Positions 4,143-61,162 of a DNA stretch of 64,000 bases are shown here, piece by piece. The translations under genes were made by a program, and so were the position numbers. The notes under the pieces were generated by a model. That model was not told where the DNA came from. It made no database searches and saw only the letters and a list, made by a program, of their open reading frames with translations. This stretch comes from Azolla caroliniana. Its lineage: Eukaryota > Plantae > Polypodiophyta. The stretch spans positions 24,180,001 through 24,244,000 of the forward strand of contig JBHGNT010000002.1 in assembly GCA_043228905.1 (NCBI GenBank), read 5' to 3'. How positions within the stretch are numbered: the first letter of the stretch is position 1; each line of letters begins with the position of its first letter.

Positions 4143-4566
4143 TATCATGATATGGCAAGACTCGAACCCATGACCTTATGCTACATGGGTCGAGATCTTA
4201 ACATTAGACTATGAATTGTAATTTGTAAGATATTATTTTCATTTATGCTTTATCATAGAAAATTGATGTATATTCCAGATCTCTCTGGAACATTCTAGAA
4301 GCTTCAGGATTATTCCTAAAAACACTATAAAAGGAGACACAAGGCATTGTTTTGAACCAAATTGGTTCAACACCAGTCTTAAGCCTCTTAGCCGATTTGT
4401 ACTAATCTTTCATATAATATAAGAGCTGTTGTCATCATCCTATCTCTCTCTCTCCTCTTCTCACTTCCTCTCTCTCGGGAATCTTATGCAGTCCCATCCT
4501 CTTAGTACTAATAGTACTACTCTTCTTAGTACTAATTCCATCTCTGCTTTAGTACTATTCCTGACA
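4143..4566 (+). repeat. chromovirus 5' LTR
   Basis: Near-identical to 16635-17060; TATAAAA at 4326. Confidence 0.95.
4150..4213 (-). promoter_or_regulatory. tRNA-like Pol III A/B-box module in chromovirus U3 (second copy 16642-16704)
   Basis: Minus strand of the 3' LTR copy reads TAGTCTAATGGTAAGAT...AAGGTCATGGGTTCGAGTC. A-box to B-box spacing of 43 nt as in tRNA, with an AGGTC variable loop. Confidence 0.65.
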
Positions 4567-4580
4567 GTTTGAACCAATTT
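4567..4580 (+). promoter_or_regulatory. self-priming primer-binding site (no tRNA PBS)
   Basis: TTGAACCAATTT (4569-4580) is the exact reverse complement of AAATTGGTTCAA (4359-4370), 33 nt after the LTR TATA box. Confidence 0.75.
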
Positions 4581-5261
4581 TCCTCTTTCCTCCAGCCTAC
4601 TTGTCGTTCTCCCTCATCCTCCTACCCTTTTCCCTCTACTATGGCTACTGTTAGCGCCCAAAAATATCAATCCGTTTTCTCTGAGTTATAGTGCCTAAAA
4701 GAAAAGTTTGTTGCCCTGGAACAAGAAAACCAACGACTGATAGGGGATCTGCAACAAATCGCTCTAGAAAAGCAACAAACGCAGCAACAGCATGGGGAGT
4801 TAGCGTTGTCGCGAAGATTCGCGCGTGCGTGTGCTACTCGAGCGACCACCGGGGTCTTGGACTGGGGAGGACGTTCGCGGAATTATCGACGCTAGATGAA
4901 GATCAATGTAAGATTAGATGAAATTGGTTTACTTGAGAAGAAGAAAGATTGTACACTTGAGAAGTAGAAAAATATGAAGAAGATAAAGACAAATATAATT
5001 ATATTGATGATAATGGTGTTGGTGATATCACATATTGAGCCCCCCCTTACACAAGCCCAACTAGAGGCTTTTATAGGTCTTTCCATGCTTGTGACATGCA
5101 CAAAACCATGGGCTAAAACCATGGTTTTGTGCACACGGTTTTGCTTATGTCATGAACAAACCATGGGTTTAAAACCATGGTTTTGTGCACATGGTTTTCT
5201 ATGGTTGTTTCGTCTATAATTTGTATATGAAAAGGAAATACATAAAATTTACACTATATGA

Positions 5262-5330
5262 TAGTTGTCCTAGTGGTAAGGCAATTATCTTGTATCTTAG
5301 AGGTGCAAGGTTCAAACCTTTGCTTGCACC
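5262..5330 (+). promoter_or_regulatory. tRNA-like Pol III A/B-box module in K1 U3 (second copy 8143-8211)
   Basis: GTCCTAGTGGTAAGGC...GAGGTG CAAGG TTCAAAC CTTTG: D-loop AGTGGTA and an intact T-arm stem-loop. Confidence 0.65.
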
Positions 5331-5418
5331 CCTTTGTATGAACTCAAGTGCCACTAGGCCTTAGGAGGCTTATTTGCTAAGTGTATGTGCAATGTTGCAC
5401 ATCCTTGGTTTATTCGTC

Positions 5419-7644
5419 TCACTCGGTTTCACACCGTAGCCGAAAATCGTCACGACATCCACCCCCACCAAACCCGCACATCCTCCGGTATGTGCCGAGA
5501 AAGGTGAAGAGGTGAGATCTTTGGCAACAGTGATCAACCGAGTTCCTCTGCACGCTCGTCGACTTCGTCTTCCACTTCGAGTATGCGCAATCTTTCCAAC
5601 CGAACCACCGTAGCCACCCGATCCACCATATCCGGCGCTCACACCTTCTTCCCCGATCGGTTGTAGTAGATCTACCGAACGATGTCGTCGATACGACCGC
5701 TCTTCCTTCGTCCACCGCGCGTGTCCTTCGATTGGACTCCTGGCCACTCCTCACGCTCACCGTCTTCAACTGGGTATTGTAGATCGTTCGTGTCGATCTC
5801 CGATTAGGCCGGGTTTGCCCTTGTCCGGATCGGTCTCCACCGATCGCTTCTTGGCTTGATTGGCCTTCGTCTGTATTCACATTTCGCCGAGTCGGGCTCG
5901 ACCAATTGATTCCTGCCGGGTCGGCCCCCTTTTGGATCGGGATTGTCCGATTGATTTCGTCCGAATCAGGTTTCGGTCGGGTCAGCCCCAGTCGATCGGC
6001 TCCCATGTGGATCTTCCTTCGTTCGGGCCGGAATCCTAGCCGGATTGTCTTCCGGTTCGACCGGTTCTCGACTCTTCCTTCCTTCCCGCATGACGCCTCT
6101 CCATCGAACTCAACCGCGGCTTCATCCTTGGCTTCCTCATCGACCATATCCTTCCCTCCATGTATGCTCGCCGCGAGCCATATTGTCTCCTCTTCGCCAC
6201 CTCCTTTATCTTCGGTCTTATGCCGACACACGGTCTCGACTGCCGAAGTCTCCGGAACCGGTGTGAAGGAATCCCTTCGCTCATGCACATTTACCTTGTC
6301 TTCTTCATCGCCCTTCCGGTCGTCCTCTTTCTTGTCCACACATTCCGTCTCTCCGGTCTCACGTTGGCGCACGTGCACAACCGCCGAAGTCTCTAGATTA
6401 GGTGTGGGGATATCCTTTCTTCCACGATCTTCTTCCTCCTTGTGTTGGGCCTTCGTCTTCCCGTCACCACCTTCCGTCTCTCCGGTCTCACGTTGGCACA
6501 TGGGCGCAACCGCCGAAGTCTCTAGAACAATCGTGGAGAAAGTCTTGACATGGCTATCCGTTGTCGACTCGTGCATAGCCACCTCCGACTCGATGTCGTT
6601 TGTCATGGCTACCTCCTCAATCTCTTCAAACTCAAACACTTTTTCTCCCTCGATCATGCAAGCTTTTCTCATGCTTGCGCCGTCATCACCCGATGTTTTG
6701 TACACAATGCGTGTTCCAAAACATTTATCCTCCCTCGAAGTGGCGTTCGCCGTCCTCGAGTCATCAGACTCCTCCTTCGCCGTCGTTTCTTTGTAAGACA
6801 AGAAGGTGACTTGTTTCACACCTTCTCTCTCGGTACCGTCATACCGAACCAGAGCCTTTGTATCGGCCACTTCATTAACCCGCATTTGTTGGGAGGTCTC
6901 TTCTTCCTCGATCACCATTCGCCTCGGTTTTGTCTCCCTTTTAAGCTTCATTTCTTTTGTTGGTGGCGCGTTGTTGCATCTCGTCCCTCTTCAATCGTCC
7001 CTCATGGGCCGTCTTGTTGTCGTCGATATTCTCGCTTGCCCCTTATCGTGTAGTCGGCATACACTTTCCACTTTGCTCCAATCCTCGATGAGGCCATTTG
7101 CACCATCATCTTCTTCGAGTTTGAGACCGATCGCCATCCTTTCCATTCGATCGATTGACTTCACGAACATAAGGACCTTATCGACCCCCACCAATCTTTG
7201 TTCCCGCTCCGACAATTGAGAAAAATGATGCTCGAAGTCTACGAATGCTTGTGTCGCGCCTTGGTGGGTCTTCGCTGATGTCACCCATTGGTCGTAGTTG
7301 CGTTGATCTTGTCCCTTTAGTCTCTCATAGTCATATTCCTCCAATAGAGCCTTCTCGAAAGTCGCCCACGAATCATGAGCTTCTAGAAGCTCTTTTACAT
7401 CTTTGAAGATCGGTTGAGACACCACCCGACAAAAGTACTCTAGCCTCATAGCTTTGTCCACACCTCTTGAATCCATCTCCGCATTGTAGACTTTTAGGAA
7501 ACTTTGGACTTCGGCACCGTTGAAATAGCTCATTCGTTCGACTACCTTATCGACGGCTTGTTGGGCTTCATTTCTTCTTTTCCCTTCTCTCAGAAACTCC
7601 ATCATCCTTTTTGACATTGCCTCCATGAGATATTCGCCATCCAT
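5419..7644 (-). CDS. K1 Gag fused to a long acidic/low-complexity extension (about 740 codons, one in-frame TGA at 6991-6993)
   Basis: ORFs 6991-7644 and 5419-6951 are in the same frame. The N-terminal part is homologous to J gag (FNG...FLKVYNAEM, DKVLMFVKSID, GLIEDW). Confidence 0.75.
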
Positions 7645-7665
7645 CTTCGTCCTCCCCTGTTGCTC

Positions 7666-7683
7666 TTCACGTCGGGTTCACCA
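7666..7683 (-). promoter_or_regulatory. PBS complementary to tRNA-Trp 3' end
   Basis: TGGTGAACCCGACGTGAA matches the complement of the last 18 nt of plant cytosolic tRNA-Trp as I recall it. Same motif at 14074-14091, 61796-61813 and, with 2 mismatches, 42894-42911. Confidence 0.8.
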
Positions 7684-10600
7684 AATGATGTTGCGAAGAT
7701 TCGCGCGTGCGTGTGCTACTCGAGCGACCACCGGGGTCTTGGACTGGGGAGGACGTTTGCGGAATTATCGAACCTAGATGACGATCAATGTAAGATTAGA
7801 TGAAATTGGTTTACTTGAGAAGAAGAAAGATTGTACACTTGAGAAGTAGAAAAATATGAAGAAGATAAAGACAAATATAATTATATTGATGATAATGGTG
7901 TTGGTGATATCACATATTGAGCCCCCCCTTACACAAGCCCAACTAGAGGCTTTTATAGGTCTTTCCATGCTTGTGACATGCACAAAACCATGGGCTAAAA
8001 CCATGTTTTGTGCACACGGTTTTGCTTATGTCATGCACAAACCATGGGTTTAAAACCATGGTTTTGTGCACATGGTTTCGTATGGTTGTTTCGTCTATAA
8101 TTTGTATATGAAAAGGAAATACATAAAATTTACACTATATGATAGTTGTCCTAGTGGTAAGGCAATTATCTTGTATCTTAGAGGTGCAAGGTTCAAACCT
8201 TTGCTTGCACCCCTCTGTATGAACTCAAGTGCCACTAGGCCTTAGGAGGCTTATTTGCTAAGTGTATGTGCAATGTTGCACATCCTTGGTTTATTCGTCT
8301 CACTCGGTTTCACACCGTAGCCGAAAATCGTCACGACAGCGTTATGGGTGCAACAACTCGAAGCGGCATTGCAACAACAAGGATCAAGTCCCCAAGGATT
8401 TCATAAAGAGCCGAAGATTGGACTTCCTATGAAATTTGATGGAACGCGATCGCAATTCAGGGATTCCTTAATCAGGTACGATTAGTCCTCCAAATGCATC
8501 CTTCCCGATACCCCACTGATGCATCCCGAGTCGGCTTAATAGGCATGTTGCTTAGCAGCTCAGCCTTAGCATGGTTTGCTCCTCTTCTAGAAAAACAATC
8601 GCCCTTGCTTAATAACTTTGAAGATTTTATTAGTGAGTTCAAAGCCTGCTTTGGAGACACCGACAGCATTAGGACGGCTATCAACAAGATCCGGCGATTG
8701 CGTTAAGGCGATCATCCAGCCTCTGCCTACGCGGCGGATTTCCGCCTACTCGCTTCCGACATTCCCTGGGATGATCAAGCACTAATGGAGCAGTTTCACT
8801 ATGGCCTGCGAAATGATGTCAAAGATCTACTTCTAACCTTCCCCGAAGAACCAAAGTCTCTTACAGAGGCAATCAGTCGAGCGGTCCGATGTGACAACCG
8901 CCTCTTCGAACGGCGTTCAGAACGTCAATTACAAATACCACGCGCTAGGCTGGAGCCCACTTACACCGCAGTCGCGGCTAGACCGTTTGCACGAGACATA
9001 CCTCAAGCAAATACTTCGACACCGATGGAGATCGATACCATGCGTTGACGCGGCCCGTTATCGGAAGAAGAAAAGCAACGACGACGTGCAAATTGATTAT
9101 GTCTTTATTGCGGTGGACTAGGGCATATCGCAATCAATTCTCCCCATAGGCCAAGAAGACAGGTAAATCAAATTGTAGCCTGTACTAAACCCGAGTCAAT
9201 TCTTCCCTTAGGAGTGTTTGATAGTATTAATAGTACTAATAGAGTGTTTGATAGTATTCATAGTACTAATAGCCCAAGTATCTCAAATAAATTTGAAATC
9301 CTTAGTCAATTAGATGAAGAGTTAAACGATTGAGTCCAGCCAAAATAGGAGCCGTTTGGTTGGACAACAGCCCTAGATCTGTACAGCCCATTAGTGGTTC
9401 CATTCCTTCCAAGCAAGTTAGCAATGTGTTCCTAGCCCAAGTCATTGTTAGTACTAAAAGTACTCCCCCAGTACCCGTCCTAGCACTTTTAGATTCCGGA
9501 GCTAATTCCTGTTTCATGGATCGAAATTTTGCCCAAGCTTCTCAAATATCCTTAAGAAAACTTCCTTGTCCCGCATCTGTAGTAGTCATTGATGGTCGTC
9601 CCATTGCTTCTGGGAATATTGTAGAAGAATCAGAACCCATTCAAGTTGTCCTAGGTAGTTTTGTGTGTGTAATATCATTTAATATAATTAGTAGTCCAGA
9701 GCATCCCATTGTCCTAGGATTACCTTGGTTTGAATTACATAATCCAGCCATAGATTGGAGAACAAGAGAAGTCCGATATCGACCACCCCAAGAATCAACT
9801 CACCAAGTTTCGACCATTTCGCTCCATCAACTACGCGAAGAAGGACCCAAGGAGGCAATGTTCCTATTTGCAATATCAGTACATCCTTCCAGCACTATTA
9901 AGGACTCCTCAGTACAACTTCCAGCAAAATATCATCCTTATGCCGATGTATTTGACAAGGTAAAAGCCGGTACCCTTCCTCATCACCGTCCCTATGACTG
10001 TCCCATCGATTTACAACCAGGAACCGAGCCACCATGGGGACCAATTTACAACTTGTCACCCACCAAGTTAGAAGTCCTTCGAGCCTACATAGAGGAGAAC
10101 TTGGCAAGCGGGTTCATCCGCCATTCGAAATCTCCGGCCGGTGCACCCATCTTCTTTGTCAAGAAGAAAGATGGCTCACTTCGTCCTGTTGTTGATTACC
10201 GCGGATTGAATAAAGTCACCATCCGGAATAGGTATGCACTTCCTCTTATATCAAGTCTTTTAGAGCGAGTTAATGGTGCCAAGTTTTTTACTAAAATTGA
10301 CCTACGAGGAGCGTATAACCTCGTGCGGATCCGACCGGGAGATGAGTGGAAGACCGCCTTTCGCACGCGGTATGGGCATTTCAAGTATACTGTTATGCCG
10401 TTTGGCCTAACCAATGCTCCCGCAGTCTTCCAACACATGGCAAATGATATATTCAGAGACCTCTTGGATATCTGTTTGATTAGTTATCTGGATGATCTAT
10501 TGATTTATTCGAAGACCCAGGAAGAGCACGATTCTCATGTACTATTAGTACTAAAGCGACTCCGTGAGAATGGTCTTTATGCCAAGCTAGAAAAATGTAG

Positions 10601-11336
10601 CTTTGACTGCAAGCAAGTGGAATTTCTAGGCTACGTCATCTCCTCAAAGGGCATCGCCATGGATCCAGCTAAAATCCAAACTGTACTAGAGTGGCAAATT
10701 CCACGGTCGGTACGAGATGTACAATGTTTTCTAGGTTTTGCTAACTTCTACCGTAAGTTTATACAGGATTACTCGAAGATTATTTTACCTCTCACACAAC
10801 TTATGAAGAAGGGCCAAGCATTTCTTTGGTCCATAGAAGCAGATATGGCTTTTCGGCATCTTAAGAAAGCCTTTACATCAGCACCGATTCCAGCTCATGT
10901 GGATACAAGCAAACCATTCATCATGGAGGCCGACGCATCAGATTTCGCCCTCGGTAGCATCCTTTCTCAACAAGGCGATAAAGAAGAGTTGCATCCGGTG
11001 GCTTTCCATTCGCGCAAATTCGATGTCGCAGAAATCAACTACGAAATACATAACAATGGTGGCATTTCTTAGAGGGCTCTCCACATCAGGTCATTGTCTT
11101 TAGCGATCATAAAAATCTTGCTTATTTTCAGAACGCTCGCGTACTAAATCGACGGCAAGCTCGGTGGGCGCAATTCCTCACGCGTTTCGACTTCAAAATC
11201 ACATATCGACCGGGGAAGCAACAAGGAAAACCAGATGCACTATCACGGCGTTCATATCTTGCACCTCGGCCTGGTGACGCAACATTTGATAATCAAAAGC
11301 AAGTAATCTTGGGACCAACACGATTGCACACGACGT

Positions 11337-11870
11337 TGTCGTGCCTTTCGGCTCCGGATCGTTTGCGTGAGTCGGGTGGGAACCACTGGGGTTTTGGACT
11401 AGGAAGAAGAGAGTTTTAAGGCTAATAAGAATATAAATATGTTGTAAGAAAGAGTTATAGCAAACTCGTGAATCCCACGAGTGTATTGTATTTGATTAAT
11501 CAATATGAATATAAGAATATAAACTTCGGTTGAAAGAGAATGATATAGAATTCTCGTGAATCCCACGAGTATAGTTTATTAATTGGTGTTTTTTAGAAAC
11601 AACTGTGTCGTGCCTTTCGGCTCCGGATCGTTTGCGTGAGTCGGGTGGGAACCATTGGGGTTTTGGACTAGGAAGAAGAGAGTTTTAAGGCTAATAAGAA
11701 TATAAATATGTTGTAAGAAAGAGTTATAGCAAACTCGTGAATCCCACGAGTGTATTGTATTTGATTAATCAATATGAATATAAGAATATAAACTTTGGTT
11801 GAAAGAGAATGATATAGAATTCTCGTGAATCCCACGAGTATAGTTTATTAATTGGTGTTTTTTAGAAACA
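11337..11870. repeat. 269-bp tandem duplication inside K2 LTR (also 14096-14630)
   Basis: TGTCGTGCCTTTCGG recurs at 11337/11606 and 14096/14365. Confidence 0.95.
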
Positions 11871-12164
11871 TATCCAGTTTCCAAGTATTTCACACCCAAT
11901 TACATTGTGCTTCCCATCCTTATGTAGTGATGAGGAAGTCTTAGTAATCCATGCTTTTTCTCTAACTATAGACCCCATGCTTTTCCTATAGATAGACTAT
12001 ATGCTTTATCTAAAGTGATCATGCTTTTTCTAACTTGTGCGTTTTTTATCATGCACGCTAGATGTGTATGTGTAGCTTTTTCTTTTGTTATGCATTTTTC
12101 TAATGTTTATCCTAGCGTGAATTTACCTTTCTATGTGGGACATCTATGCTTTAACACTAATGAA

Positions 12165-12230
12165 ATGCTAGTGTAATGGTAAGACATTACATTATTAACA
12201 TGGAGGTGCAAGGTTCGAATCTTGCCCTAT
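12165..12230 (+). promoter_or_regulatory. tRNA-like Pol III A/B-box module in K2 U3 (second copy 14924-14990)
   Basis: TAGTGTAATGGTAAGAC (12169)...GAGGTGCAAGGTTCGAATCTTGC (B box 12212), followed by TTTT runs at about 12240. Confidence 0.7.
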
Positions 12231-12302
12231 GCATGTTCCATTTATTTTGCTATTTTCTTCTATTTCTTCATTTTTTATTGAATCTAATACTATATACGTT
12301 TT

Positions 12303-14078
12303 TCACGTAGTGTACAAAATCAATCTCGACTTCTTTTCGGATTTTCGGTTTAGTCGGATTAGCTTACTTCCGATTCGGTCTCGTCGGATCGTCTTTCGTT
12401 TAGTTCGGCTTCCTTTCCGATTTGTATTCAGTCGATCCGGACTCGGTTGATCGGTTTTTACCGATTCAGTGCTCTTTCGGGTCGGTTTCTTTTCTTTTCT
12501 TTTCGTCCGGATTTGCTTTCTTTTCTTCGTTTTCACCTGCCTTGTCCGGTTCGACTTTCGGCACTTCTTTCCGTTGTTCGCCACGTAGGTCCTCCGATAT
12601 GTGCTCGTTGTTCGGTCCTCGTGTGGTTGTAATGCATGCTTCTTTTCTCGCCGTAGCGCGTGCTTCTTTATTCGCCATAACACGCGTTTCTTTATTCGCC
12701 GTAGAGCGTGCTCTGTATTACGCGCTTCTCCCGTCGTAGACCCGACCTCCGCATTGTCGCACTTTCTTTTAGATTGGAATTTCGGATGGATCATTTTCCA
12801 TCCGAACCGACTTCCGACTTTACCTTCCTCGCCGCCATCTCCCGTCTCTCCGGTCTCACGTTGGTTCTCGGACACAACCGCCGAAGTCTCTAGATATTGT
12901 TGGCATGAATCCTCGGTATTACCTTCTTTCGTAGTTTCACCCTTAGCATTCTTCTCAGCTATCTCTTCATCGTATTCGTCGGCTTCGACATTCGTTTTCT
13001 CTCCGCCACCTTCCGTCTCTTCGGTCTCACATTGCCTTTCGATCGCAACCGCCGGAGTCTCTGGAATCAGTGGTGGGGAAGTCTCGATATGGCAATCCGC
13101 CATTGATTCGTCCATAGCCACCTCCGATTCGATTTCGTCTTTTGTGGCTACCTCCTTAATCACATCCGCTTCACACTCTTTATCTGCATCAATTATGCAA
13201 ACATCTATTATGCTTACCCCTTTTTGACCCGATGTCTCGGGCACTTGTATCCCAAAATTTCCTTCTACACTTGAATTATCGGCCTTATCCTTCGCCATCG
13301 TTCTTTCACAAGACGAGTGGGTGTCTTGTTCCACTCTTTCTCCCGTGGTACCATCATGTTGTATTTCGGCCTTCATATTGGCTTCATCGTTTTTCCTCAA
13401 TCGACCATCCTTCATGGGCCATGTCGTTGTTGACGAGATTCTCAGCTTCCTTTCATCATGTCTTCGGCATACCCTTTCGACTTTAGCCCAATCCTCGGTA
13501 AGGCCGTTCGCACCGTCATCATCTTCGAGTTCGATCCCAATGTCCATCCTTTCTTTCCGATCGATCGATCTTACGAACATTAAGACTTTATCTCCTCCCA
13601 CCAATCTTCGTTCTCGCTCCGAGAGTCGAGCAAAACGATGCTCGAACTCTAGGAACGCTTGCGTTGCACTTCGGTGAGTCTTCTCCGACGCCACCCATTC
13701 GTCAAATTCTCGTCGATCTCATCCCGTCCATCTCTCATAGTCATATGCCTCCCGTAAAGCTTCTTCAAAGGACTCCCATGTCGAGTTTTGTTGTTGTATC
13801 TTGTGGATTCTCTCTTGTAGTTCGTCCGAGGCCACCCGACTAAAGGATATCACTTGCAATCCTTCCGGTATCCGATATTGCATCATCTCCGCCTTATATT
13901 CACGTAGGTAGCGTGACACACCCTTACCGTTGAATTCCCCGTTTCGTCGCAGAAGCCGCTCTACAGCCGCCTTCATCTCCGACATCGCACGTTGTTCTTG
14001 TTGCATCCGCTCAAACATTATCATCATCATGTTCATCACCTCTTGTTGATTCTCCATCTCCTTGCCACCCGCCTTCAC
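12303..14078 (-). pseudogene. K2 Gag plus acidic extension (frameshift near 13720)
   Basis: ORFs 13719-14078 and 12303-13694, homologous to the K1 ORF and J gag. Confidence 0.8.
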
Positions 14079-16634
14079 GTCGGGTTCACCAACTGTATCG
14101 TGCCTTTCGGCTCCGGATCGTTTGCGTGAGTCGGGTGGGAACCACTGGGGTTTTGGACTAGGAAGAAGAGAGTTTTAAGGCTAATAAGAATATAAATATG
14201 TTGTAAGAAAGAGTTATAGCAAACTCGTGAATCCCACGAGTGTATTGTATTTGATTAATCAATATGAATATAAGAATATAAACTTCGGTTGAAAGAGAAT
14301 GATATAGAATTCTCGTGAATCCCACGAGTATAGTTTATTAATTGGTGTTTTTTAGAAACAACTGTGTCGTGCCTTTCGGCTCCGGATCGTTTGCGTGAGT
14401 CGGGTGGGAACCATTGGGGTTTTGGACTAGGAAGAAGAGAGTTTTAAGGCTAATAAGAATATAAATATGTTGTAAGAAAGAGTTATAGCAAACTCGTGAA
14501 TCCCACGAGTGTATTGTATTTGATTAATCAATATGAATATAAGAATATAAACTTTGGTTGAAAGAGAATGATATAGAATTCTCGTGAATCCCACGAGTAT
14601 AGTTTATTAATTGGTGTTTTTTAGAAACATATCCAGTTTCCAAGTATTTCACACTCAATTACATTGTGCTTCCCATCCTTATGTAGTGATGAGGAAGTCT
14701 TAGTAATCCATGCTTTTTCTCTAACTATAGACCCCATGCTTTTCCTATAGATAGACTATATGCTTTATCTAAAGTGATCATGCTTTTTCTAACTTGTGCG
14801 TTTTTTATCATGCACGCTAGATGTGTATGTGTAGCTTTTTCTTTTGTTATGCGTTTTTCTAATGTTTATCCTAGCGTGAATTTACCTTTCTATGTGGGAC
14901 ATCTATGTTTTAACACTAATGAAATGCTAGTATAATGGTAAGACATTACATTATTAACATGGAGGTGCAAGGTTCGAATCTTGCCCTATGCATGTTCCAT
15001 TTATTTTGCTATTTTCTTCTATTTCTTCATTTTTTATTGAATCTAATACTATATACGTTTTTCACGTAGTGTACAAAATACACTACGACAACGCGGATTT
15101 TTCACACCCCGATGGATTCACGGATTACCGATGACATACGTGCAACCTTGAAGACGGATAGTTTTGCTCAAGACATACTAGCGCACATTGATACTTCTCG
15201 GGCATCCTGTTCTCAGTCTCAACAACCAGGCATTGACTACCGACAATTCGAATATCATGATGGTTTGTTATTCTGTAAAAAGTGTGTATATGTCCCCGAT
15301 TGCTCCTGTCGCCTTCAAATCGTCCAACATTGTCACGACACCCATACGGCGGGACATTTCGGTAGTACTAAGACTTTGGAGCTAGTGCAGCGATCTTTTT
15401 GGTGGCCCCACATGCGCCGTTTTGTCAACGACTACATTCGGACCTGTGATGCTTGCTGCCGAGCAAAGATGCCACGACACCATCCATATGGCTTGTTGGA
15501 ACCCTTACCGATTCCAAGTAAGCCGTGACAGTCTATTTGTCTTGATTTTATCACAGATCTGCCGGTCTCGAAGTGGTTCGATGCTATCCTAACCGTCGTC
15601 GATCGATATACGAAGATGGCACATTTTGTGTTGTGTACTAAAGCCATCACTAGCGAGGAAACCGCCGCTCTTGTTATGCGTGAGGTATTTCGGCATCATG
15701 GCCTCCCTGACAGTATTATCAGTGATCGAGGCCCGCAATTTGTCTCCAAATTTTGGCAGCATCTCTTCAAGATGCTCAAGGTCTCCTGCAACCTCTCCTC
15801 CGGCTACCATCCTCAGAACGACGGGCAGGCGAAACAAACAACCCAAACGCTAGAGCAATATCTCCGGTGTTTCCTGAGTTATCAACTGGACGATTGGGCC
15901 GAGATTCTCCACTTTGTGGAGTTTGCGTATAATAATGCTATTCACTCCTCGACTCGGGTCTCCCCATTTTTTGCTTATACCGGTTTCCATCCTCGCTGGT
16001 CGGTGATCGACACTCCGGAGCTACCTACCAACCCTCGTGCCGAGGATCATTTGGAGAGGCTACGCAAGATCCAGATGGATCTCTCTACTCACCTTCGTCA
16101 TGCTCAACACACACAGAAGACTTATGCGGATCGTCATCGGATTCCCTCCTCTTTTGCCATCGGAGATCGAGTATGGCTCTTACGTCGTCACATCAAGACT
16201 ACTCGACCGTGCGACAAGTTGGATTATCGACAACTCGGTCCCTTCCGTATTACGGGTAAGATTAATGATGTCACCTTCCGCCTTGATCTCCCTCCGCAGC
16301 TTCAGATACATCCGGTTTTCCATTGTTCTCTTCTTGAACCTTATAAAGCAAACACCATTCCCGATTGTGTGACACCACCGCCGCCCCCGTTGGAGTTGGA
16401 CGTCGGCCCGGAGTATGAAGTTGCTGCCATCCTCGATTCCAAACTTGTTCACAACAAACTTTATTACTTGGTTGATTGGCTCGGTTATAGTCTGAGCGAA
16501 CGTACTTGGGAACCCGTCGAGCATGTTACCAATGCACAGGATCTTCTTGTTGATTTCCACCAAAAGTATCTGGACAAACTAGGTCCGCAATTAGCACCGA
16601 CTCGTTCCACTCGTCGTCTTTAAGGGGGAGATAG

Positions 16635-17060
16635 TATCATGATATGGCAAGACTCGAACCCATGACCTTATGATACATGGGTCGAGATCTTACCATTAGA
16701 CTATGAATTGTAATTTGTAGAATATTATTTTCATTTATGCTTTATCATAGAAAATTGATGTATATTCCAGATCTCTCTGGAACATTCTAGAAGCTTCAGG
16801 ATTATTCCTAAAAACACTATAAAAGGAGGCACAAGGTTCATTGTTTTGAACCAAATTGGTTCAACACCAGTCTTAAGCCTCTTAGCCGATTTGTACTTAC
16901 CTTTCATATAATATAAGAGCTGCTGTCATCATCCTATCTCTCTCTCTCCTCTTCTCACTTCCTCTCTCTCGGGAATCTTACGCGGTCCCGTCCTATTAGT
17001 ACTAATAGTACTACTCTTCTTAGTACTAATTCCATCTCTGCTTTAGTACTATTCCTGACA
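16635..17060 (+). repeat. chromovirus 3' LTR
   Basis: Preceded by PPT, followed by TSD CGATC. Confidence 0.95.
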
Positions 17061-30249: not shown

Positions 30250-30532
30250 CTCTTCATCCGGTTCTCACCGGGTCTGCACCATCCGGCTCTCCGTAGCCCG
30301 GTACTCCTCATCCGGTTCTCACCGAGTCTGCACCATCCGGCTCTCCGTAGCCGGGTACTCCTCATCCGGATCTCACCGGGTCTGCGTCATCCGGCACTCC
30401 GTAGCCGGCTACTCCTCATCCGGTTCTCACCGGGTCTGCGTCATCCGGCTCTCCGTAGCCGGGTACTCCTCATCCGGTTCTCACCGGGTCTGCGTCATCC
30501 GGCTCTCTGTAGCCGGGTACTCCTCATCCGGT
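30250..30532. repeat. 54-bp tandem array in copia C U3 (5 units; 6 units at 35150-35488)
   Basis: Unit CTCCTCATCCGGTTCTCACCGGGTCTGCGTCATCCGGCTCTCCGTAGCCGGGTA. Confidence 0.95.
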
Positions 30533-30629
30533 TTCGGCCTCGGCCTATCGGCCTTGGCCGAGTCTGTTCATCGGCACTGTTCTTCTCTCTTCCCATCCGG
30601 AGGGACCTATCTCCCAACAAACTCCCCCT

Positions 30630-34676: not shown

Positions 34677-37600
34677 TTTCTGTGTCGTTTCGCTCTGATA
34701 CCACTTGTCGAGAACTAGTCGTTCCTTATGCTCAACGCTCGGCCACAACCGAGCTTAGAATCATACACAGAAAATGGGAAGTAAATGCACAACACAAAGG
34801 AGAGAAAAGGTACACAACATGTTTACGTGGAAAACCCAAACTAAGGGAAAAACCACGACAACCCATAGGCTGCAAACTATCACTATGTTGGAATGTACAA
34901 ACAATGAGTTCACGGAGGCAACGACCTCGTGCTCACTATCTTCACCACGGGCGGCGGTTACAACAGAGGCAACGACCTCTTTCTCTCTCTCTCTCTCTGT
35001 ACACTGTTACACACTCTAATCTCGTGCAAAACAGGAATGACAACAACCACACTAAAAGTTTGCCCTATGTCATATTTATACTAATATGACTTTTCGGCTA
35101 TTTACAAATATAGCCTCGATGGACTCTCAGAAACATATTTACGAATATGTCTCTTCATCCGGTTCTCACCGGGTCTACACCATCCGGCTCTCCGTAGCTG
35201 GGTACTCCTCATCCGGTTCTCACCGGGTCTGCACCATCCGGCTCTCCGTAGCCGGGTACTCCTCATTCGGATCTCACCGGGTCTGCATCATCCGGCTCTC
35301 CGTAGCCGGGTACTCCTCATCCGGTTCTCACCAAGTTTGCGTCATCCGGCTCTCCGTAGCCGGGTACTCCTCATCCGGTTCTCACCGGGTCTGCGTCATC
35401 CAGCTCTCCGTAGCCGGGTACTCCTCATCTGTTTCTCACCGGGTCGGCGTCATCCGACTCTCCGTAGTCAGGTACTCCTCATCCGGTTTCGGCCTCGGCC
35501 TATCGGCCTTGGCCGAGTCTGTTCATCGGCACTGTTCTTCTCTCTTCCCATCCGGAGGGACCTGTCTCCCAACAAGAACGCGTATCCGGACGTGGATCGG
35601 TGATCAGCGGCGTTGCCAGCCCAATCAACATAGGTGTAGCCGACTAACTGCGCGGCTGCACCGGTCCGATATAGCAGTTCCCGGTCCATAGCGCCGTTGA
35701 CATACCGAAGTATGTGTTGCGCACACTAAAGGTGCTCCTCGATAGGTCGCGCCATGAACTGACTGATCACTCCGACCGGATAACTGAGGTCGGGTCGGGT
35801 GATGGTCAAGCATATCAGGCTTCTGACAATTTGTCGGAACCTCGTCGGGTCGCATACCTTTCCCGTATCGGGACGAAGCTTGACGGTTCTGTCCAGAGGA
35901 GTCGAGACGGACTTACAGTCGGCCATCCCGAATTTGAAGAGCATATTCAGCGCGTAATGACGTTGGCTGATTAGTATGCCTTCGGGGGTGCGGATCACTT
36001 CGATCCCGAGAAAGTAATGAAGGTCCCCTAGATCCTTCATGTCGAACGATGCCACAAGTTGGAGCTTCACGCGGTCGATTTCACCGAGGTCGGCGCCGGT
36101 GATGACCAAGTCATCAACATATAGTAAAGTACTAACCGGTCCGAGTCGACCTTTCCGGATGAACAGGGAAGAGTCCGATTTTGACGTGACAAAGCCCATC
36201 CGATGCAATTGTTGCGTGATCTTCGCGTTCCAGGCACGCGGGGCTTGCTTCAGTCCGTAAAGGTACTTCTTCAATCGGCATACTGCCGAGGAGTTCGTTT
36301 CGGAGTGAAATCCGAGGGGCTGTACCATGTATACTTGTTACTCAAGGTCACCTTGCAGGAACGCATTCTTTACATCCATCTGATGTAGGTGCCACCCCTT
36401 GGCCGCGGCTACGGCAAGCAAAACACGGACGGTCATCATTTTTGCGACCGGCGCAAATGTCTCATCGTAGTCGATGCCGTGTTTCTGCGCGTAGCCCTTT
36501 GCCACTAGCCGAGCCTTGTACCAGTTGACAGAGCCATCGGTGTTGTACTTGACCTTGTACACCCACCTACACCCGATCGGCTTCACACCCTTCGGTGCGT
36601 CAACCCGGTCCCAGGTCTCGTTCTCCGCCAATGCGTGCATCTCTTCCTCCATCACGGCACACCAAGTCGCGTCTTTAGCCGCTTCTGTGTAGCTCTCCGG
36701 CTCACGCACTTCCGCTACACGGGTCATGTACGCATAGTGATGCGCCATGTACTCGTTGTATCCGAACCGCAAAACAGGATTCTTCTGGCGGGAAGATCGG
36801 CGTAATCTCACATTAGCAGATGTCGAGGCCTTCTCGGTCGACGCGGACTTCACCTTTAAAGACCCGTCACCGGTTCCCTCGGAGTCGGACTCGCGTCGGT
36901 CTGACTCGTTCCCATCCGTGCCGGAATCCGACACCTTCTTCTTCCCTTTCTCTTTGCACATAAACCGTCTCCTCAGCTTCCTGCGCAGGGAATGCACGGC
37001 CGAGTCTCCACTACTCGCCGGCTCTTCATCGGACTGGTCGCACCGACTCAGTCGTCCAATCGGTCCACTTAAACTTAAACGGAGTGAAATCGGACTCTCT
37101 TCGCGGGTCTCGAATTCGGGCTCATCCGGAGGCCTCTCGGGCTCGCTGACCTCATCGTCCGAGCTCGGATTGGAGTCGAGGTTCGGAGTCGAGGGCTGGT
37201 ACCAGGACGCGGACTCGTCAAACACAACATCGCGGCTAACACGCGCTTGTTTGGTGTGAGGGTTATAGCACTTATAACCCTTCTGCTCATCCGAGTAACC
37301 GACCAAGATGCATTTCTCGGCTTTTGCGTCCAGCTTCCTCCTTTTCTTCCTCGGTACATGCACATACGCAATGCTACCGAACACCCTCAAGTGTCACAAG
37401 TTCGGCTTCGTTCCGAAATATAGCTCGTGCGCCGACACTTTGTCTCCGATCCGGTTCTGGATGTATACTGCGGTCCTTACCGCCTCGGCCCAGTAGAACT
37501 TGGGCAAGCTCTTCTCCTCCAGCATTGCCCGTGCCGCTTCCACAACTGACCGATTCTTCCTCTCGGCCACGCCGTTCTGGTCCGGCGTGTATCTACAACT

Positions 37601-40600: not shown

Positions 40601-43600
40601 TCGGCGGGTAGGTCGGGTGTAGCTCGTCCCTATGTCAGACGCCGAGTGGGCCTAACAACTCTCGCAGGTTGTCTCGAAGTGGTGCGTGTCATGGTACATT
40701 CCCGGCCACCAATACTTCTCTTTCAGTTTCACGAACGTTGCCCACATCCCGCGGTGGCCGGACCAAGGGCTCTCGTGGTATTCCGACAACACCACCTTTT
40801 GCTCCTCTTTTCTTACCACTACTCGGAGTGGAAAGCTACTATGCTTCTTCGGGTGCTTCCATATACTCCCATCCCGGAGGAAGAAATGGCACGCCTTCTT
40901 TCGGATTTGGTTCGCTTCTTCGCGTTTGCCTCCCTGTAGGCTTGTTGGACCTGTCGATAGGTCATTCGCCGCGATCTCATAGTGTGCATGCTTCCCCGTT
41001 GGCCCTTCTTTCGACCGCATGCACGCTTCTTGTTCCTTTGCATATGCAGTGTCCTCTGTCCGAGGAGCACCCATGATGGCCTGCTTGGTCTCCGTTGATC
41101 ATTGCGTCATCCCAATTCTCGTTCCGTGTTGATCTCCACCGCCTTTGTCCCCTCGCCGCCACCTACCTTCTCCTTGGTTTTATGTTGTCACGGCGGCCAA
41201 ACTGCCAAGGTCTCTGGAACTAGTGTGGAGGATCCCTCTCCGGCCTTCTACGCGAGATCACGTGGACCGGCAACCCATCTTTGCGCTTGTATTCCCGCTT
41301 TGGCACCTCCGTGTGCCGCACATCCCCTTCTCGTGTTCGGCACCGCCCGTGCCGAATTCCGGTTACTTCCCATGCACGCGTCATCGGCCCTCGCCCGGCC
41401 AGATCGTGCATCGCCGCTTCTCCGGATACCAATGTCCTCCGCGTACAAGGAACACTTTCGTCTTCCGTTGCGGCCACCGGTTCGGAGCCTTCCACTTGGC
41501 GTCATCCCCTCGCCCCCACCAGCTTGTTACCTCGGGTTTGGCTTGCCACGCCAGTCGTTGCCACTCTGACTGAGCCGCTGAGATCCCGCACGCTTATCTT
41601 CTACCAGGACCTCGTAGTTCTGGCATGCCGCTTCCACGAAACTGGTCTTTTCTTCGACCGGATTGTTCCACCCCGTAACCTCCCCGACTCGCTTCTCCAC
41701 GCGGTCTGCTTCCTCCTTCCTCAACCGCACCCCAGAAAGGCCTTCCAACATTAGTGGCCAAAACCTTGAGTCTTTCGGTTTCAGGCCGCCTTAGATACCG
41801 GCCGATGTGGAGTAATGTATGGCGTCGTCGTGTTGCGTTGCTGCCTACTCCATTAACCGTTTCATCCCGCCCCGACCTATGTTCCATCTCAAGGCGTCCC
41901 AAGTTTCACTCTCGTGCACCTGCCCATTCCGCAGGTACACCACATTGCTTCTGAGTGGCTCTATGAAATCCGCGCAATCCCTTCGAGTGTGGCCGATCGC
42001 ATTGCACCACATACATCGTTGATCGGTCGGAGGCTTTCGGTCGCGAGCTTGTCCCCCGCTGTTCCTTCGGGCATGTGCAATCTAGAGGCTCGTACCATCT
42101 TCGTGAGCTCCTCAAGACCTGCGCCTCTAGATGGATCCTTGACCGCATCGGTCGGAACCGCGGCAGCCTCAAACCACCTTCATGTCTCTTCCGTTTTTGC
42201 CGGGGTCGGTTCCCTCGATCTCCTCCCGATTGCCGCGCCTGCTGCCCTAAGGCCCTGGTCGCTCCATTCACGTTGTTTGTCGAAACGGCTACAAACCCCT
42301 TTGACAATGGCCCAATCGGCCATAAGCCCCTCATCCGTCTACAATAGAGGACCCACACTTTCCCGATCAAGCGCGTTCACCGACTTGGTGAAGAGCAGGA
42401 CCCGGCTCGTATCGAGCACAGTTTGGTCGAGCGTCGAGAGTCGAGCAAATCGCTTTTCAAACTCCTGGAGGAGAGCCGATTTATTCCTCTCTTTCCTAGG
42501 ACTCTTGACCCACTCCATGACCTCCCGCTTCGACAGCCGAAGCGAGTCATCGTACCCACACCTCTCAAGGAGTCGTACTTCGAACTCCTCCCAGTTTCAG
42601 CAGGCTGCCTACACCAAGAGCACCTCCGTGTGAATGCTCGACGAAAGCACCGGAGGGAATCCGGACAACCATTTTTCCACTGGTATGTCCCACTCTACCA
42701 TTTTAGACCGGTAAGCCTCAAGATAGCTTGCTGCATTTTTTCCACCAAATCGGCCTATTGCTCCAACGATTGATTCGATGGCCCTATCAAGGGCTCCCGT
42801 GCCCTCGCGAGCGCTCACCAGACAGTCTACCGCCGCCGCCATGGCTTCAGCAAGTTCCGTTCCCCTAATCTTCAGGATTCCTCTGCCGCCTGTTTCACAT
42901 CGGCTTCACCAAGATGTCGTGTTACTTCGTGTAGATGCGAGGAAACGTAGGCGGGATAGCGCCTTGGACCGAGGAATGCAAGAAGGGAGATAACAGAAAG
43001 AAACTCAGGACACACGGAGTACTGAAACAAGTTATATTAATAGGAAAATTACAACTGGCTCAACCGGGAATGAGCTATGAGCTCAGTTACCAACACATGC
43101 ACTCCACAGTCGTGACGCAATAGGGCCTTTGTCGGGAGCACTCGGGCTTCCTACACAAACAAAGACGTCTGTGCGTCCAAGAAAACAAAATCCCGGGATC
43201 AAGAAACAGGAAACAGAAATCAGAAAACAGGAAACAAAAGACGGATGCTCAGTTCCCAGTCCGACAACACCTCCTTCCCCTCAAAACATGTAGCCTTTTT
43301 CAACCCTTTCTCCCTCCTTTTATATACCAAGGAGAGCGGGCTATTACATCATGTAATTAATTCGGCCACCCCCGACAACAATTTTCTTAGATCCTAACTA
43401 AGTTCATATTCCTATTCAATGTACCCTTGCTTGACCTTGTCCCTAGTCCTAGGCTCTTTATAAGTAGTTATTATTCATGTGCCTCCCATAAGTGGCGATT
43501 CACACGTCTTTGGTCCCCTTTTCTCCTGTGGCCAGGTTTCCCCACGACAACGGACTGAAGTAAACTCCCCGGAAATGGTACCGGAAGTTCGACTGACTCC

Positions 43601-55465: not shown

Positions 55466-55594
55466 CACACAAGAGAGTAAAACCAGCCTAGTTAGGTTCT
55501 TACTTCTTACTCAATTTATAGTTCATACAAAGGTACCAATTTGTTGGCTTAGCTAAAAAGGGTGTGCTAAGAGGGTGGGTCGTCTTAGGTACAT

Positions 55595-57303: not shown

Positions 57304-57351
<48 letters not shown>

Positions 57352-57845: not shown

Positions 57846-60800
57846 CCGGCAAGGGAAATCTGTCACGGAATGCTGGTACTGTGGCAAAAAAGGCCATAAG
57901 GAGAGCGAGTGCTGGAAGAAGTGCGCCGATTTGGAGAGGACCGGATCCGGATCAGTTTCCGGACAGACCGACAAAGGAAATCGGCAGTGATCGCACTACG
58001 CCAAAGGATCCGGAAAAGCCGGAAAAGGGTCAGTCTTCGTGACGACACACAAAGAAAACTCGATGAAGAAGATCACCCCAAAGTCGGACGAGGTGTGGTA
58101 CGTCGACTCCGGCGCGTCAAACCACATGACGTACCACAAGGAGTGGTTCTCGTACCTTGAAAAACCGATGCAACCGGAAATAGTCGCAACCGGAGATGAC
58201 ACTCCGCATCCAATCGCGAATGTCGGTGAAGTTCCCTTGAGCCATGTCGGGCAGAAAGGGAAACTTATGAATGTGTTACACGTCCCGACAATCACGAAGA
58301 ATCTGGTGTCGGTCGGGCAGATTGTCGACCAGGGGATGCAAGTCCAGTTCACGCATCTTGGGTGCTTCATCGAGGAAGAAGGTCGAGTTATTGCGCAAGG
58401 ACGTAGAGACGGGAGGATGTTTATCCTCGATTCTTGTGACGGTGGCACCGCAATGTTCGCAAAAGGACAAAAAGTCAAGTCGTATATCGACTTATGGCAC
58501 AAGCAGATAGGCCACGTCAACTATCAACGGCTTCAGGACCTGCAATCGAAACAAGTGGTGTTCGGATTGCCCAAATTTAGTGGCCGGAAGGCACGAATTT
58601 GTGAAGCCTGCCAGCTAGGGAAGCAACCCCGACTTCCTTTCCCTAACGAGCATAACTGGAGCCGAAACAAGCTCGACTTGATACATTCCGATGTATGGGG
58701 GCCAACACAGAACGTTAGTCTTGGCAGGAGTCGATATTTTGTCTCCTTCATCGAGGACTATACGCGGCACACGTGGATCTACCTCATCAAGAAGAAGAGT
58801 GAAGTCTTCGACTAATTCTGGGACCTCAAAGGGTTAGTGGAAACGGAAACAAGACAAAAGATCAAGTGCTTGCGGTCGGATGGCGGAAAAGAGTACTTTT
58901 CCGGTCAATTCAACGGCTATCTGCAACAAATGGGAATTCGGCGTGAATTCAGTTGTAGATACACGCCAAAGCAAAACGGCGTGGCCAAGAGGAAGAACTG
59001 GTCAATTGTAGAAGCGGCATGGGCAATGATGGAGGAAAAGAGCTTGCCCAAGTTCTATTGGGCCAAGGCAGTATGAACCGCAATATACGTCCAGAATCAG
59101 ATCGGAGAAAAAGTGTCGGCGCATGAGCTATACTTCGGAACGAAGCCGAATCTGCGACACTTAAGAGTTTTTGGTAGCATTGCGTATGTGCATGTACCGA
59201 AGGAGAAGCGGAGGAAGTTGGACGCGAAAGCTAAGATGTGTATCTTGGTTGGCTATTCGGACGAGCAGAAGGGTTATAAGTGTTATAACCCTCGCACCAA
59301 ACAAGCGCGCGTGAGCCGTGACGTTGTGTTTGCGCCGGTCGGGAAGATGACGACCGTCCGTCTTTTGCTCGCGGTGGGTGTGGCAAAGGAGTGGCATTTA
59401 CATTAGATGGATGTAAAGAATGCATTCCTGCAAGGTGAACTTGAGGAACAGGTGTACATGGTACAACCCCCCGGATTTCACTCCGGAACGAACACTTCGG
59501 CGGTGTGTCGATTGAAAGAGTTCCTTTATGGACTAAAGCAAGCCCCGCGTGCCTGGAACGCGAAGATCACGCAATGATTGCGTCGGATGGGCTTTGCGAC
59601 GTAAAATCGGACTCCTCACTATTCATCCGGAAAGGTCAACTCGGGCTAGTTAGTATTTTACTTTATGTTGATGACTTGGTCATCACCGGTGCCGACCTTG
59701 GTGAAATTGACCACGTAAAGCTCCAACTCGCGGCATCATTTGACATGAAGGACCTGGGGGACCTTCATTATTTCCTCGGGATCGAAGTGATCCGTACCCC
59801 CGAAGGCATACTGATCAGCCAACGGCATTATGCGTTCAGTGTGCTCTTCAAATTCGGGATGGCTGGCTATAAGACCGTGTCTCGACTCCTCTGGATAGAA
59901 TCGTCAAGCTTCGGCCTGATTCCGCAAAGGTATGCGACCCCGACAATGTTTCGACAGATAGTCGGAAGCCTTATATACTTGACCATCACCCGACCAGCTC
60001 TCAGCTACCCAGTTGGGATGATTAGACTGGGCCGGCAACGTCGTCGATCGCCGATCCATGTCCGGTCTCGCGTTCTCTCTCAGGAGTGCCACGATCGCGT
60101 GGAGTAGCATGAAGCAGCCAACATTTGCGTTGTCGAGCACCGAAGCCGAGTATAGAGGAGTGGATATCGCGACATGTGAAGCCATATGGTTGAAGCGGCT
60201 ACTTACGGATCTGCAGGTGGAGGTATGCGATCCAACGACAATCTACTGCGACAACCTCAGCAGCATCCAGCTAGCTAAGAACCCCGTCTTCCACGCCCGG
60301 ACTAAGCACATTGAGGTGCACTACCATTTCGTCCATGAGCGTGTCCTCTCCGGTGAAGTCGAACTTCAGTAAGTTCAGACGGATCGGCAGAACGCTGACA
60401 TCTTCACCAAGCCTCTTGGTCTGTACAAGTTGCGGTAATTCTCGGGTGCGCTTGGGTTGCGTCACCTCGACGTGCCGAACTTGAGGGGGAGAGACATCCG
60501 TGACGCCGAGTCGGATGACGAATTCGATTTCGGATCGGCTGAAGAAGTCGAGGGCAGATCCGCGGAAGAGTCTGAAAATGGACATAAAGGGAGCAATCAA
60601 AAGAAAGAGTTGAAGCCAACCAAATGTGGGGGAGATGAAGCCATCAGGGGCCGAGAAGACCGAAGACGAGTTGGAGACAACCAACTCGGACGAGAGCGAA
60701 AACCGATTGGAGGAAGCCAAGTCGGTTTGGATGTTTGATTCGGATTCGCTGAATCAACCAAGGGCCAAGTGGAAGAGAAGGCAGCAGAAGAGGTGCCAAC

Positions 60801-60904
60801 ACCACAACATCAAGGAAGCTAAGAAGGGTCGTGTAAGCAGACAAGCCGACCGGAAGGGTCGAGGCGCGCGGAATCGAACGGGTCGAGGAGCGCGAGCGAG
60901 GCGT
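57846..60904 (+). mobile_element. Ty1/copia element I (B family), internally deleted, cut by H and J
   Basis: CWYCGKKGHKESEC, WYVDSGAS, IN, RT, RH. Deletions near 59330 and 60023. Confidence 0.9.
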
Positions 60905-60961
60905 TGTCGTGAAGAATGTGCTTCACGATATAAAAATGAGCTTAAATGTTGTATTTAATAA

Positions 60962-61023
60962 TATTTGAGAGACTTGAACCCACATCCTTATATATGATGT
61001 ACAATGTACATACCACTAGGCTA
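60962..61023 (-). promoter_or_regulatory. tRNA-like Pol III A/B-box module 1 in J U3
   Basis: TAGCCTAGTGGTATG...AAGGATGTGGGTTCAAGTCTCTC. Confidence 0.6.
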
Positions 61024-61096
61024 GGCTATTTATTTGTAAAAGTGTGTTATAAATGTGCCTCATGATATAAGAATGAAGCTATATATTGTATTAAGT

Positions 61097-61162
61097 AAAA
61101 TTGAGGGACTTGAACCCTCAACCTTGTATACCAAGCACCAAGCATACACCACTAAGCTAGGT
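61097..61162 (-). promoter_or_regulatory. tRNA-like Pol III A/B-box module 2 in J U3
   Basis: TAGCTTAGTGGTGTATGCTTGGTGCT...AAGGTT GAGGG TTCAAGT CCCTC AATTTT: perfect T-arm followed by a T4 terminator. Confidence 0.7.

Follow-up and report, generated by a model that had tools for sequence, protein, structure and literature searches.

tRNA-like A/B-box modules in the long terminal repeats of coding retrotransposons of Azolla caroliniana: candidate captured RNA polymerase III promoters

In a 64,000-nucleotide (nt) stretch of the Azolla caroliniana genome (assembly GCA_043228905.1, contig JBHGNT010000002.1, positions 24,180,001 to 24,244,000), hereafter the window, we found that retrotransposons of two lineages, a Tcn1-type chromovirus and the Phygy-type elements K1, K2 and J, carry in their long terminal repeats (LTRs) short modules made of an A box and a B box. 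The observation is real and lineage-wide, and it is probably a variant of RNA polymerase III (Pol III) promoter capture by LTR elements. With both boxes at tRNA spacing and A-rich DNA upstream, the modules have the anatomy expected of type-2 Pol III promoters. Pol III promoters are known in the LTRs of Cassandra, Helenus and Ajax, which are tiny non-coding elements thought to make element RNA from them; here the modules lie in protein-coding elements with TATA-bearing LTRs, are placed and oriented so as to be unable to make element RNA, and recur in two lineages. We tentatively favor the reading, to which we give somewhat less than an even chance, that they are captured promoters kept as DNA elements, acting as a local chromatin barrier or promoter opener.

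Modules in the window

A consensus scan of the 64-kb window, in which an A box and a B box of 11 nt each had to lie 25-45 nt apart and no more than one mismatch was allowed, returned eight modules against a mean of 0.12 (maximum 1) in 25 local dinucleotide shuffles, a ratio that is generous in that the B-box pattern was composed with the eight sequences already known. The leave-family-out scoring of outside loci described below is free of that circularity. A weight-matrix scan placed 32 nt between the boxes (43 nt start to start) in all eight modules; the consensus scan had put the K1 modules at a 27-nt gap, which scores equal to the 32-nt placement. The eight score 35-43, and the single other match in 64 kb (18.8) equals the best of 20 shuffles. 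The eight cassettes, their strands and their tRNA spacing are as claimed in an earlier reading of this stretch from its letters alone (the sequence-only reading). The modules are as follows.

4158..4211, minus strand: chromovirus 5' LTR module, found in the A/B-box scans, with one private A-box mismatch at 4201
16650..16703, minus strand: chromovirus 3' LTR module; B box 15 nt from the LTR edge, first run of four Ts (T4) 84 nt further, past the LTR edge and the polypurine tract (PPT)
5266..5319, plus strand: K-type module of the K1 3' LTR, found in the A/B-box scans; no T4 inside the LTR
8147..8200, plus strand: K-type module of the K1 5' LTR, from the weight-matrix scan
12169..12222, plus strand: K-type module of the K2 3' LTR, found in the A/B-box scans
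14928..14981, plus strand: K-type module of the K2 5' LTR, found in the A/B-box scans; T4 22 nt downstream
60970..61023, minus strand: J-type module 1 (J1), outer copy of a 137-nt tandem duplication
61106..61159, minus strand: J-type module 2 (J2), with a perfect 5-bp T stem and T4 5 nt downstream
5308..5361 and also 8189-8242, minus strand: weak mirror-image module on the K1 B box, with two mismatches, a level met about once per window in shuffles

All eight full modules are antisense to their own element, as judged from Pfam domains and the positions of primer-binding sites (PBSs), and this agrees with the earlier claim. Six of them form LTR pairs with 52-54 of 54 letters equal, and J1 and J2, a tandem duplicate, share 40 of 54; the window modules are four independent loci, the duplicate being counted with J. 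The copia-type LTRs of the window gave no module in the weight-matrix scan. The one lower-scoring match, a borderline sense-strand A/B pair at 61418-61472, lies downstream of the J TATA motif.

Distribution and fixation

Metagenome contigs were scanned with the PPT/LTR junction, which gave at least 123 loci; 95 with at least 250 nt of LTR were kept, 28 shorter ones were dropped, and the 95 outside LTR starts and six window LTRs were grouped into 55 clusters by LTR similarity. Calling a module at a score of at least 20, with a matrix trained without the cluster under test, we found one in 35 of the 95 Phygy-type LTR starts and in 16 of the 55 clusters, these and the cluster counts below being among the matches listed. 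Shuffled LTRs (303) scored no higher than 15.3, and internal regions (110), used as controls, no higher than 10.2. Among Phygy-type clusters with at least 600 nt of LTR, 10 of 31 had a module. The outside contigs belong to a single run of adjacent assembly numbers, near-copies of the window LTRs are among them, and they probably sample the same or close hosts rather than forming an independent survey of species.

For the chromovirus family, contigs in the runs of four organisms cover the module like the rest of the U3 region, and the window's A-box mismatch at 4201 is private, with 99% of depth in run X1 showing the consensus letter. The modules are built-in parts of the LTR and are inherited with it. 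Their flanks held no target-site duplication (TSD)-like repeat beyond chance and no poly-A in the five of five modules tested. A recent insertion of a SINE2-type short interspersed element (SINE) was rejected, given the missing TSD and poly-A, the presence in both LTRs and throughout the family, and the downstream DNA that differs between types; the sequence-only reading had likewise taken the modules as built into U3. An ancient, decayed SINE head may be the source of the modules.

Eleven more distant chromovirus-type loci (34-52% identity, seven with more than 1 kb after the integrase) had no module, with a best score of 11.6, and a viral contig collection gave no PPT/LTR junction match and no close chromovirus. 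Module-bearing LTRs have a G+C content of 35% vs 41% in the others (p=0.0003), and there was no clear difference between the two in CpG depletion (p=0.08).

Two side observations came from the contigs. Further A/B modules lie in adjoining unrelated sequence (L002 347-401, and L072 1142-1195 after another TG-type LTR start), and other repeat families may carry such modules too. Chromovirus-type integrases were also seen in contigs filed under prokaryote genomes (L124-L131), which are likely eukaryotic contamination of those assemblies.

Conservation of the boxes and decay of the cloverleaf

Across 19 non-redundant modules, T8, A14, T16, G18, G19, A44, G46, T54, T55 and A58 are invariant, G45, T47 and G53 are nearly so, the DNA upstream is A-rich, and the gap between the boxes is 32-33 nt in all 19. 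Of 15 seeds, 11 have AGGT at tRNA positions 44-47 and 13 have AGG; these letters lie outside the textbook boxes, and the first consensus scan did not require AGGT. Alu holds the same AGGT at a like distance from its B box, which would point to a contact with DNA.

Because the modules were found by their boxes, variability was counted within clusters set by LTR similarity. With clusters 7 and 8 dropped because they have members without the module region, fixed box positions were variable at 5 of 55 sites, vs 33 of 141 in the spacer (p=0.026) and 86 of 399 in the flank (p=0.03); with both clusters kept, the counts were 15/76 for the box, 61/197 for the spacer (p=0.07) and 183/559 for the flank (p=0.024). 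The modules are probably under purifying selection at the level of the family, going by these counts.

The cloverleaf has not been kept in the same way. Pairing holds in 52% of cells (acceptor 44%, D 53%, anticodon 46%, T 70%), the T-stem value rests on three pairs at the B box, and the overall figure was met by 3 of 500 shuffles, a level to which kinship among the modules alone can give rise. With this pairing, no tRNA found by ARAGORN in the window or in 34 module-bearing loci, and no Rfam tRNA match in the window or in the eight loci searched, we rejected a tRNA gene. For the antisense types we rejected a product folded like a tRNA, and the sense types show a hint of acceptor pairing (29 of 42 cells, permutation p=0.04). 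A cloverleaf that is mostly lost while the boxes are kept would indicate a constraint on DNA motifs rather than on a tRNA fold, in line with the sequence-only reading, which had described kept boxes and decayed arms.

Origins and loss

Outside the boxes, kinship links the K1 and K2 modules with eight further antisense ones (21 of 44 letters equal between K1 and K2, z about 3; z as high as 8 among the others), and the K1 and K2 modules have one origin. No relation outside the boxes was seen between the J type, the chromovirus type, the main sense type and the K type, or among the first three. These comparisons allow as many as four captures of a tRNA promoter, taken from tRNA genes or the heads of SINE2 elements, one each for the K, J, sense and chromovirus types, a tally that fits the repeated capture proposed earlier; deep divergence from fewer than four sources would be another account. 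The four different LTR families of the sequence-only reading do not stand as such, since K1, K2 and J are one lineage and the K1 and K2 modules are homologous, and what does stand is that a chromovirus and a non-chromovirus lineage both bear modules.

The sense module of L043 resembles the K type outside the boxes, a likeness that suggests inversion. K-type modules lie inside an inverted repeat around a near-palindromic B box (5298-5331 and 8179-8212 in the window; L022, L048, L049, L082 and L083 outside), and 28-32 nt away the opposite strand holds a weak second A box. The mirror modules use this B box on the opposite strand in both K1 LTRs, and similar mirrors occur in the same five outside loci. 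Through such an inverted repeat, modules could come to switch orientation.

Loss also occurs. L051, with a contig coverage of 143, matches L021 at 91% identity across the first 404 nt and has kept the module's downstream flank without the module, which indicates deletion. In an integrase tree built from 17 rows out of 13 clusters, module-bearing and module-free clusters fell in an unresolved fork, with two changes vs 3.7 in shuffles and a minimum of two; 23 of 48 upstream regions had no integrase match.

Orientation and placement

The 16 module-bearing clusters comprise 10 with antisense modules only, five with sense modules only and one with both; at p=0.21, the excess of antisense is not significant. 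Where modules are in sense, the gap between the boxes is 33 nt; such modules are seen in mini-elements (L027, L053, L067) as well as in elements whose integrase frames are long (L006, L046, L070). Outward orientation, which the sequence-only reading had taken as the rule, does not hold with sense modules in six of 16 clusters, and its suggestion of antisense RNA is weakened by the same count. Its placement of the modules near the outer U3 edge is right for the window, where the B box lies 15-201 nt from the edge, and fails as a general rule, the distance reaching 15-609 nt over window and outside modules. The mini-elements (L027 260-1708, L053 305-1473, L067 251-1710) have LTRs of about 1 kb around internal regions of about 200 nt, and it is possible that they are intermediates between Phygy elements and Helenus-like miniature terminal-repeat retrotransposons (TRIMs).

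In 12 of the 19 modules, a TATA-like motif follows downstream in the element's sense, at a median of 178 nt (range 74-313). The module-TATA distance spreads less than the edge distance on 10 chosen modules (p=0.035, with L085 and J1 left out), which is suggestive of a fixed distance.

A proposed Pol III landing site beside the LTR promoter

We propose that decayed tRNA-gene promoters, each with an A box, tRNA spacing, AGGT, a B box and A-rich upstream DNA, sit in U3 both in a Tcn1-type chromovirus and in many Phygy-type elements and may serve as DNA sites on which TFIIIC, TFIIIB and Pol III assemble. The assembled machinery would prevent spreading heterochromatin from closing the LTR's Pol II promoter next to it, and any short RNA from the module would be a by-product. 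What has been preserved is the boxes, their exact spacing and the A-rich DNA upstream; the transcribed sequence has not, nor have its fold, length and direction, and this pattern fits a DNA element that assembles Pol III machinery. A full Pol III complex needs the two boxes and their spacing, which are retained, and modules are found in either orientation, as would suit an orientation-independent tRNA gene (tDNA) barrier; the fission-yeast centromeric tDNA barrier needs TFIIIC and Pol III and is orientation-independent, according to the available part of the report (PMC2040200). The related moss chromovirus RLG1 resides in heterochromatic transposable element (TE) islands and is still transcribed, as described in the part of that study at hand (PMC7466625).

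If TFIIIC were bound and the promoter shielded, this would explain how abundant moss gypsy elements stay transcribed in TE islands, and it would imply a tDNA-type barrier for plants, a 54-nt insulator for transgenes, and thousands of Pol III sites scattered through the genome. A broader claim would be that two unrelated lineages have up to four times turned a tRNA promoter into a portable Pol III barrier free of orientation, an anti-silencing device acting in cis from the LTR that allows their Pol II promoter to fire within heterochromatin, and the first plant tDNA-type insulator; we regard it as possible and rather doubtful.

Several results weigh against a maintained DNA element. No module was found in 39 of the 55 Phygy-type clusters or in three other Phygy-type LTRs of the window (at 866, 42915-43549 and 57053), and the clean deletion in L051 likewise indicates that the module is dispensable. 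The box-spacer contrast weakens to p=0.07 with clusters 7 and 8, at sites that are not independent, and in the chromovirus family, among sites varying at 4% or more, fixed box positions do not differ significantly from others (2/11 vs 20/49, p=0.30). A box-breaking change of C56 reaches 8-12% of depth in three of the four chromovirus runs, and C56 is missing in 5 of 41 outside and window matches. The constancy of the module-TATA distance is weak (p=0.053 on all 12) and disappears without L021 and L069. No tDNA barrier in plants turned up in a single literature search aimed at one.

Among the alternatives, the modules may be Pol III units that make functional short RNAs of about 70-150 nt, antisense over U3 and the PPT, feeding small-RNA pathways or tuning reverse transcription. 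A T4 run lies 5-51 nt past the B box in 15 of the 19 modules, at +21 to +25 in seven, RNA from the chromovirus module would run across the PPT, antisense modules are commoner (11 of 16 clusters), and foamy viruses make microRNA (miRNA) precursors from U3 A/B-box cassettes, as far as the available sections of PMC7104284 describe. Against this, the transcribed sequence is unrelated between module types and folds are not kept, sense modules exist, the antisense excess is within chance, and after the K1 module no T4 is met for about 600 nt, with none inside the LTR. We consider functional short RNAs unlikely.

The modules could also be neutral relics of old tRNA or SINE2 insertions fixed in master LTRs, with the conservation of the boxes an artefact of box-based detection. 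This would suit the patchy distribution, the clean loss in L051, the C56-broken copies and the non-significant chromovirus test, and SINE insertion is proposed as a source of such LTRs in the accessible part of Kojima (2024; PMC10886601). However, box sites vary less inside clusters set by overall LTR similarity, AGGT was recovered though unasked for in the first scan, the spacing is exactly 32 or 33 nt in all 19, and both copies of the J duplicated unit have perfect boxes at 74% identity. In addition, modules of four unrelated types have come to lie in the same U3 zone, and internal regions and copia-type LTRs yielded none. Neutral relics are also an unlikely account; even if that account were right, the modules would serve as markers of LTR subfamilies and illustrate how coding ancestors could give rise to TRIMp3-like elements.

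A Pol III complex might instead dampen the LTR promoter, as in the tDNA position effect, so that the element limits itself to low transposition or ties it to growth state. The anatomy would be the same, budding-yeast tDNAs inhibit neighbouring Pol II reporters 2- to 60-fold according to the portion of PMC2040200 available, and the module-less derivative L051 has high contig coverage. That coverage comes from different assemblies and does not measure how many copies exist, the chromovirus is very abundant although it bears the module, and a selfish element that repeatedly keeps a repressor needs a less direct selective story. We consider dampening improbable. Last, that the modules are Helenus-type promoters producing the element's genomic RNA by Pol III, for which the sense modules of the mini-elements with internal regions of about 200 nt could speak, is very improbable, since all eight window modules are antisense, T4 comes within 23-38 nt after sense modules in five of six, and the LTRs are 0.4-1 kb long with TATA-like motifs, in hosts some of which encode integrase (L006, L046, L070).

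Comparison with known systems

The closest described elements are the Helenus TRIMs (Kojima 2024), which, in the part of that paper available, are non-coding, 311-1263 bp long, and have LTRs with a tRNA-like stretch in which the boxes are conserved and a functional tRNA is absent; in the one known lycophyte family, Helenus-1_SMo, the module is in sense (PMC10886601). Our modules resemble those of Helenus/TRIMp3 in their tRNA-like LTR sequence, in conservation on boxes A and B, in the absence of a functional tRNA and in the multiple origins proposed. Unlike them, they lie in gag-only or gag-pol hosts of at least 3.5 kb with TATA-bearing LTRs, not in non-coding TRIMs, and are upstream of the TATA motif and mostly antisense, whereas the Helenus module is thought to drive genomic RNA (same source, in part). 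The conserved A/B boxes in the LTR are thus shared, the non-coding length below about 1.3 kb is not, and neither is the sense placement (8/8 antisense in the window); the module-bearing elements are no Helenus members. The same paper, in the sections at hand, states that many Repbase LTRs have tRNA-like parts and that only elements below 1000 bp were followed, so that larger cases would have been seen there and left undescribed, and it expects autonomous partners not to share the tRNA-like LTR sequence (PMC10886601).

The sequence-only reading had thought the arrangement undescribed. Tested against the available part of PMC10886601, this fails for tRNA-like A/B boxes in LTRs as such, which Helenus TRIMs carry, and it may still hold for coding plant LTR elements: the literature we covered, which largely left out subscription journals, Repbase entries and bioRxiv supplements, gave no account of such modules in them or in Tcn1 or Phygy LTRs. 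What it did bring up on the arrangement was the Helenus paper, reviews and a preprint citing that paper.

Cassandra and Ajax TRIMs also have a captured Pol III internal promoter inherited with the LTR; theirs is a type-1 (5S) promoter in a non-autonomous element and drives the element's own RNA (per PMC10886601, as far as the sections at hand go). Foamy-virus cassettes are likewise A/B-box Pol III units in the U3 of an autonomous, Pol II-driven retroelement, but they code for structured pre-miRNAs with shown expression, while here there is tRNA spacing in both orientations with no conserved fold or sequence, seen from sequence alone (PMC7104284, in part). The S. pombe centromere 1 tDNA barrier uses a full A- plus B-box Pol III complex in either orientation, as the anatomy here would allow, and differs in being a real host tRNA gene at a fixed locus with a shown function, where we have a decayed mobile copy with a putative one (PMC2040200, in part).

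Host elements

The window is a nest of plant LTR retrotransposons, with copia-type pol fragments throughout, a chromovirus and non-chromovirus gypsy pieces. The elements that bear modules are as follows.

4143-17060, plus strand: Tcn1-type chromovirus with protease, reverse transcriptase, RNase H, integrase, SH3 and chromodomain
4143..4566, plus strand: chromovirus 5' LTR, TATA at 4325, self-priming match at 4359-4370, 5-bp TSD
16635..17060, plus strand: chromovirus 3' LTR, after the integrase-SH3-chromodomain region (15529-16620) and the PPT
4807..5457, minus strand: K1 3' LTR, of a Phygy-type, pol-less element (4807-8338) with a 4-bp NCGN TSD
7689..8338, minus strand: K1 5' LTR, followed by the PBS common to K2 and J
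11337..12320, minus strand: K2 3' LTR, without its outer 11 nt and PPT
14090..15090, minus strand: K2 5' LTR, Phygy-type and pol-less, 4-bp TSD with one mismatch
60905..61790, plus strand: J 5' LTR, Phygy-type, followed by the PBS at 61796 and a gag/DUF4100 frame; the other end of the element lies beyond the window

The chromovirus has no tRNA PBS; a 12-nt match links the DNA after the 5' LTR to 4359, about 30 nt past the TATA at 4325, and reads as the mark of self-priming. Judged from this TATA and the self-priming match, the chromovirus modules lie in U3, and the TATA-like motifs of K1, K2 and J suggest the same for theirs. Tcn1 of moss and club-moss has a chromodomain, self-priming and a 5-bp TSD, and Phygy of Physcomitrella has a 4-bp NCGN TSD and a tRNA PBS, and the part of the source at hand mentions no Pol III boxes for the LTRs of either lineage (Neumann et al. 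2019; PMC6317226). By these traits, the chromovirus, with a chromodomain, self-priming site and 5-bp TSD, is assigned as Tcn1-type, and K1 (4807-8338, minus), K2 (11337-15090, minus) and J (plus, from 60905), which are non-chromovirus and have one PBS in common and 4-bp NCGN target sites, as Phygy-type, K1 and K2 being without pol.

K1 (3.5 kb) and K2 (3.75 kb) are pol-less derivatives nested in the chromovirus, 72-76% alike, with long open frames that have no Pfam match; the chromovirus has gag-pol domains and J a gag/DUF4100 frame. K1 and K2 resemble gag-only non-autonomous elements, and many module-bearing outside loci are also without an integrase before the PPT. The primer of the PBS that K1, K2 and J share is presumably tRNA-Trp.

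Some details of these LTRs are worth recording. The chromovirus LTRs at 4143 and 16635 start with TA, not TG, despite an intact 5-bp TSD, and the contigs suggest TG in most family members. The K2 LTRs are 99.6% identical and both carry a 269-nt internal tandem duplication; in the 3' copy (12310-12320), internal sequence is joined directly where the outer 11 nt and the PPT are missing. In K1, palindromic CCATGG-rich repeats in U3 (5100-5210 and 7980-8070), between the module and the TATA motif, could form a long hairpin, whose miRNA match in Rfam is at chance level (E=0.17). Elsewhere in the window, both LTRs of a copia-type element contain 54-nt tandem arrays (30250-30533 and 35151-35488).

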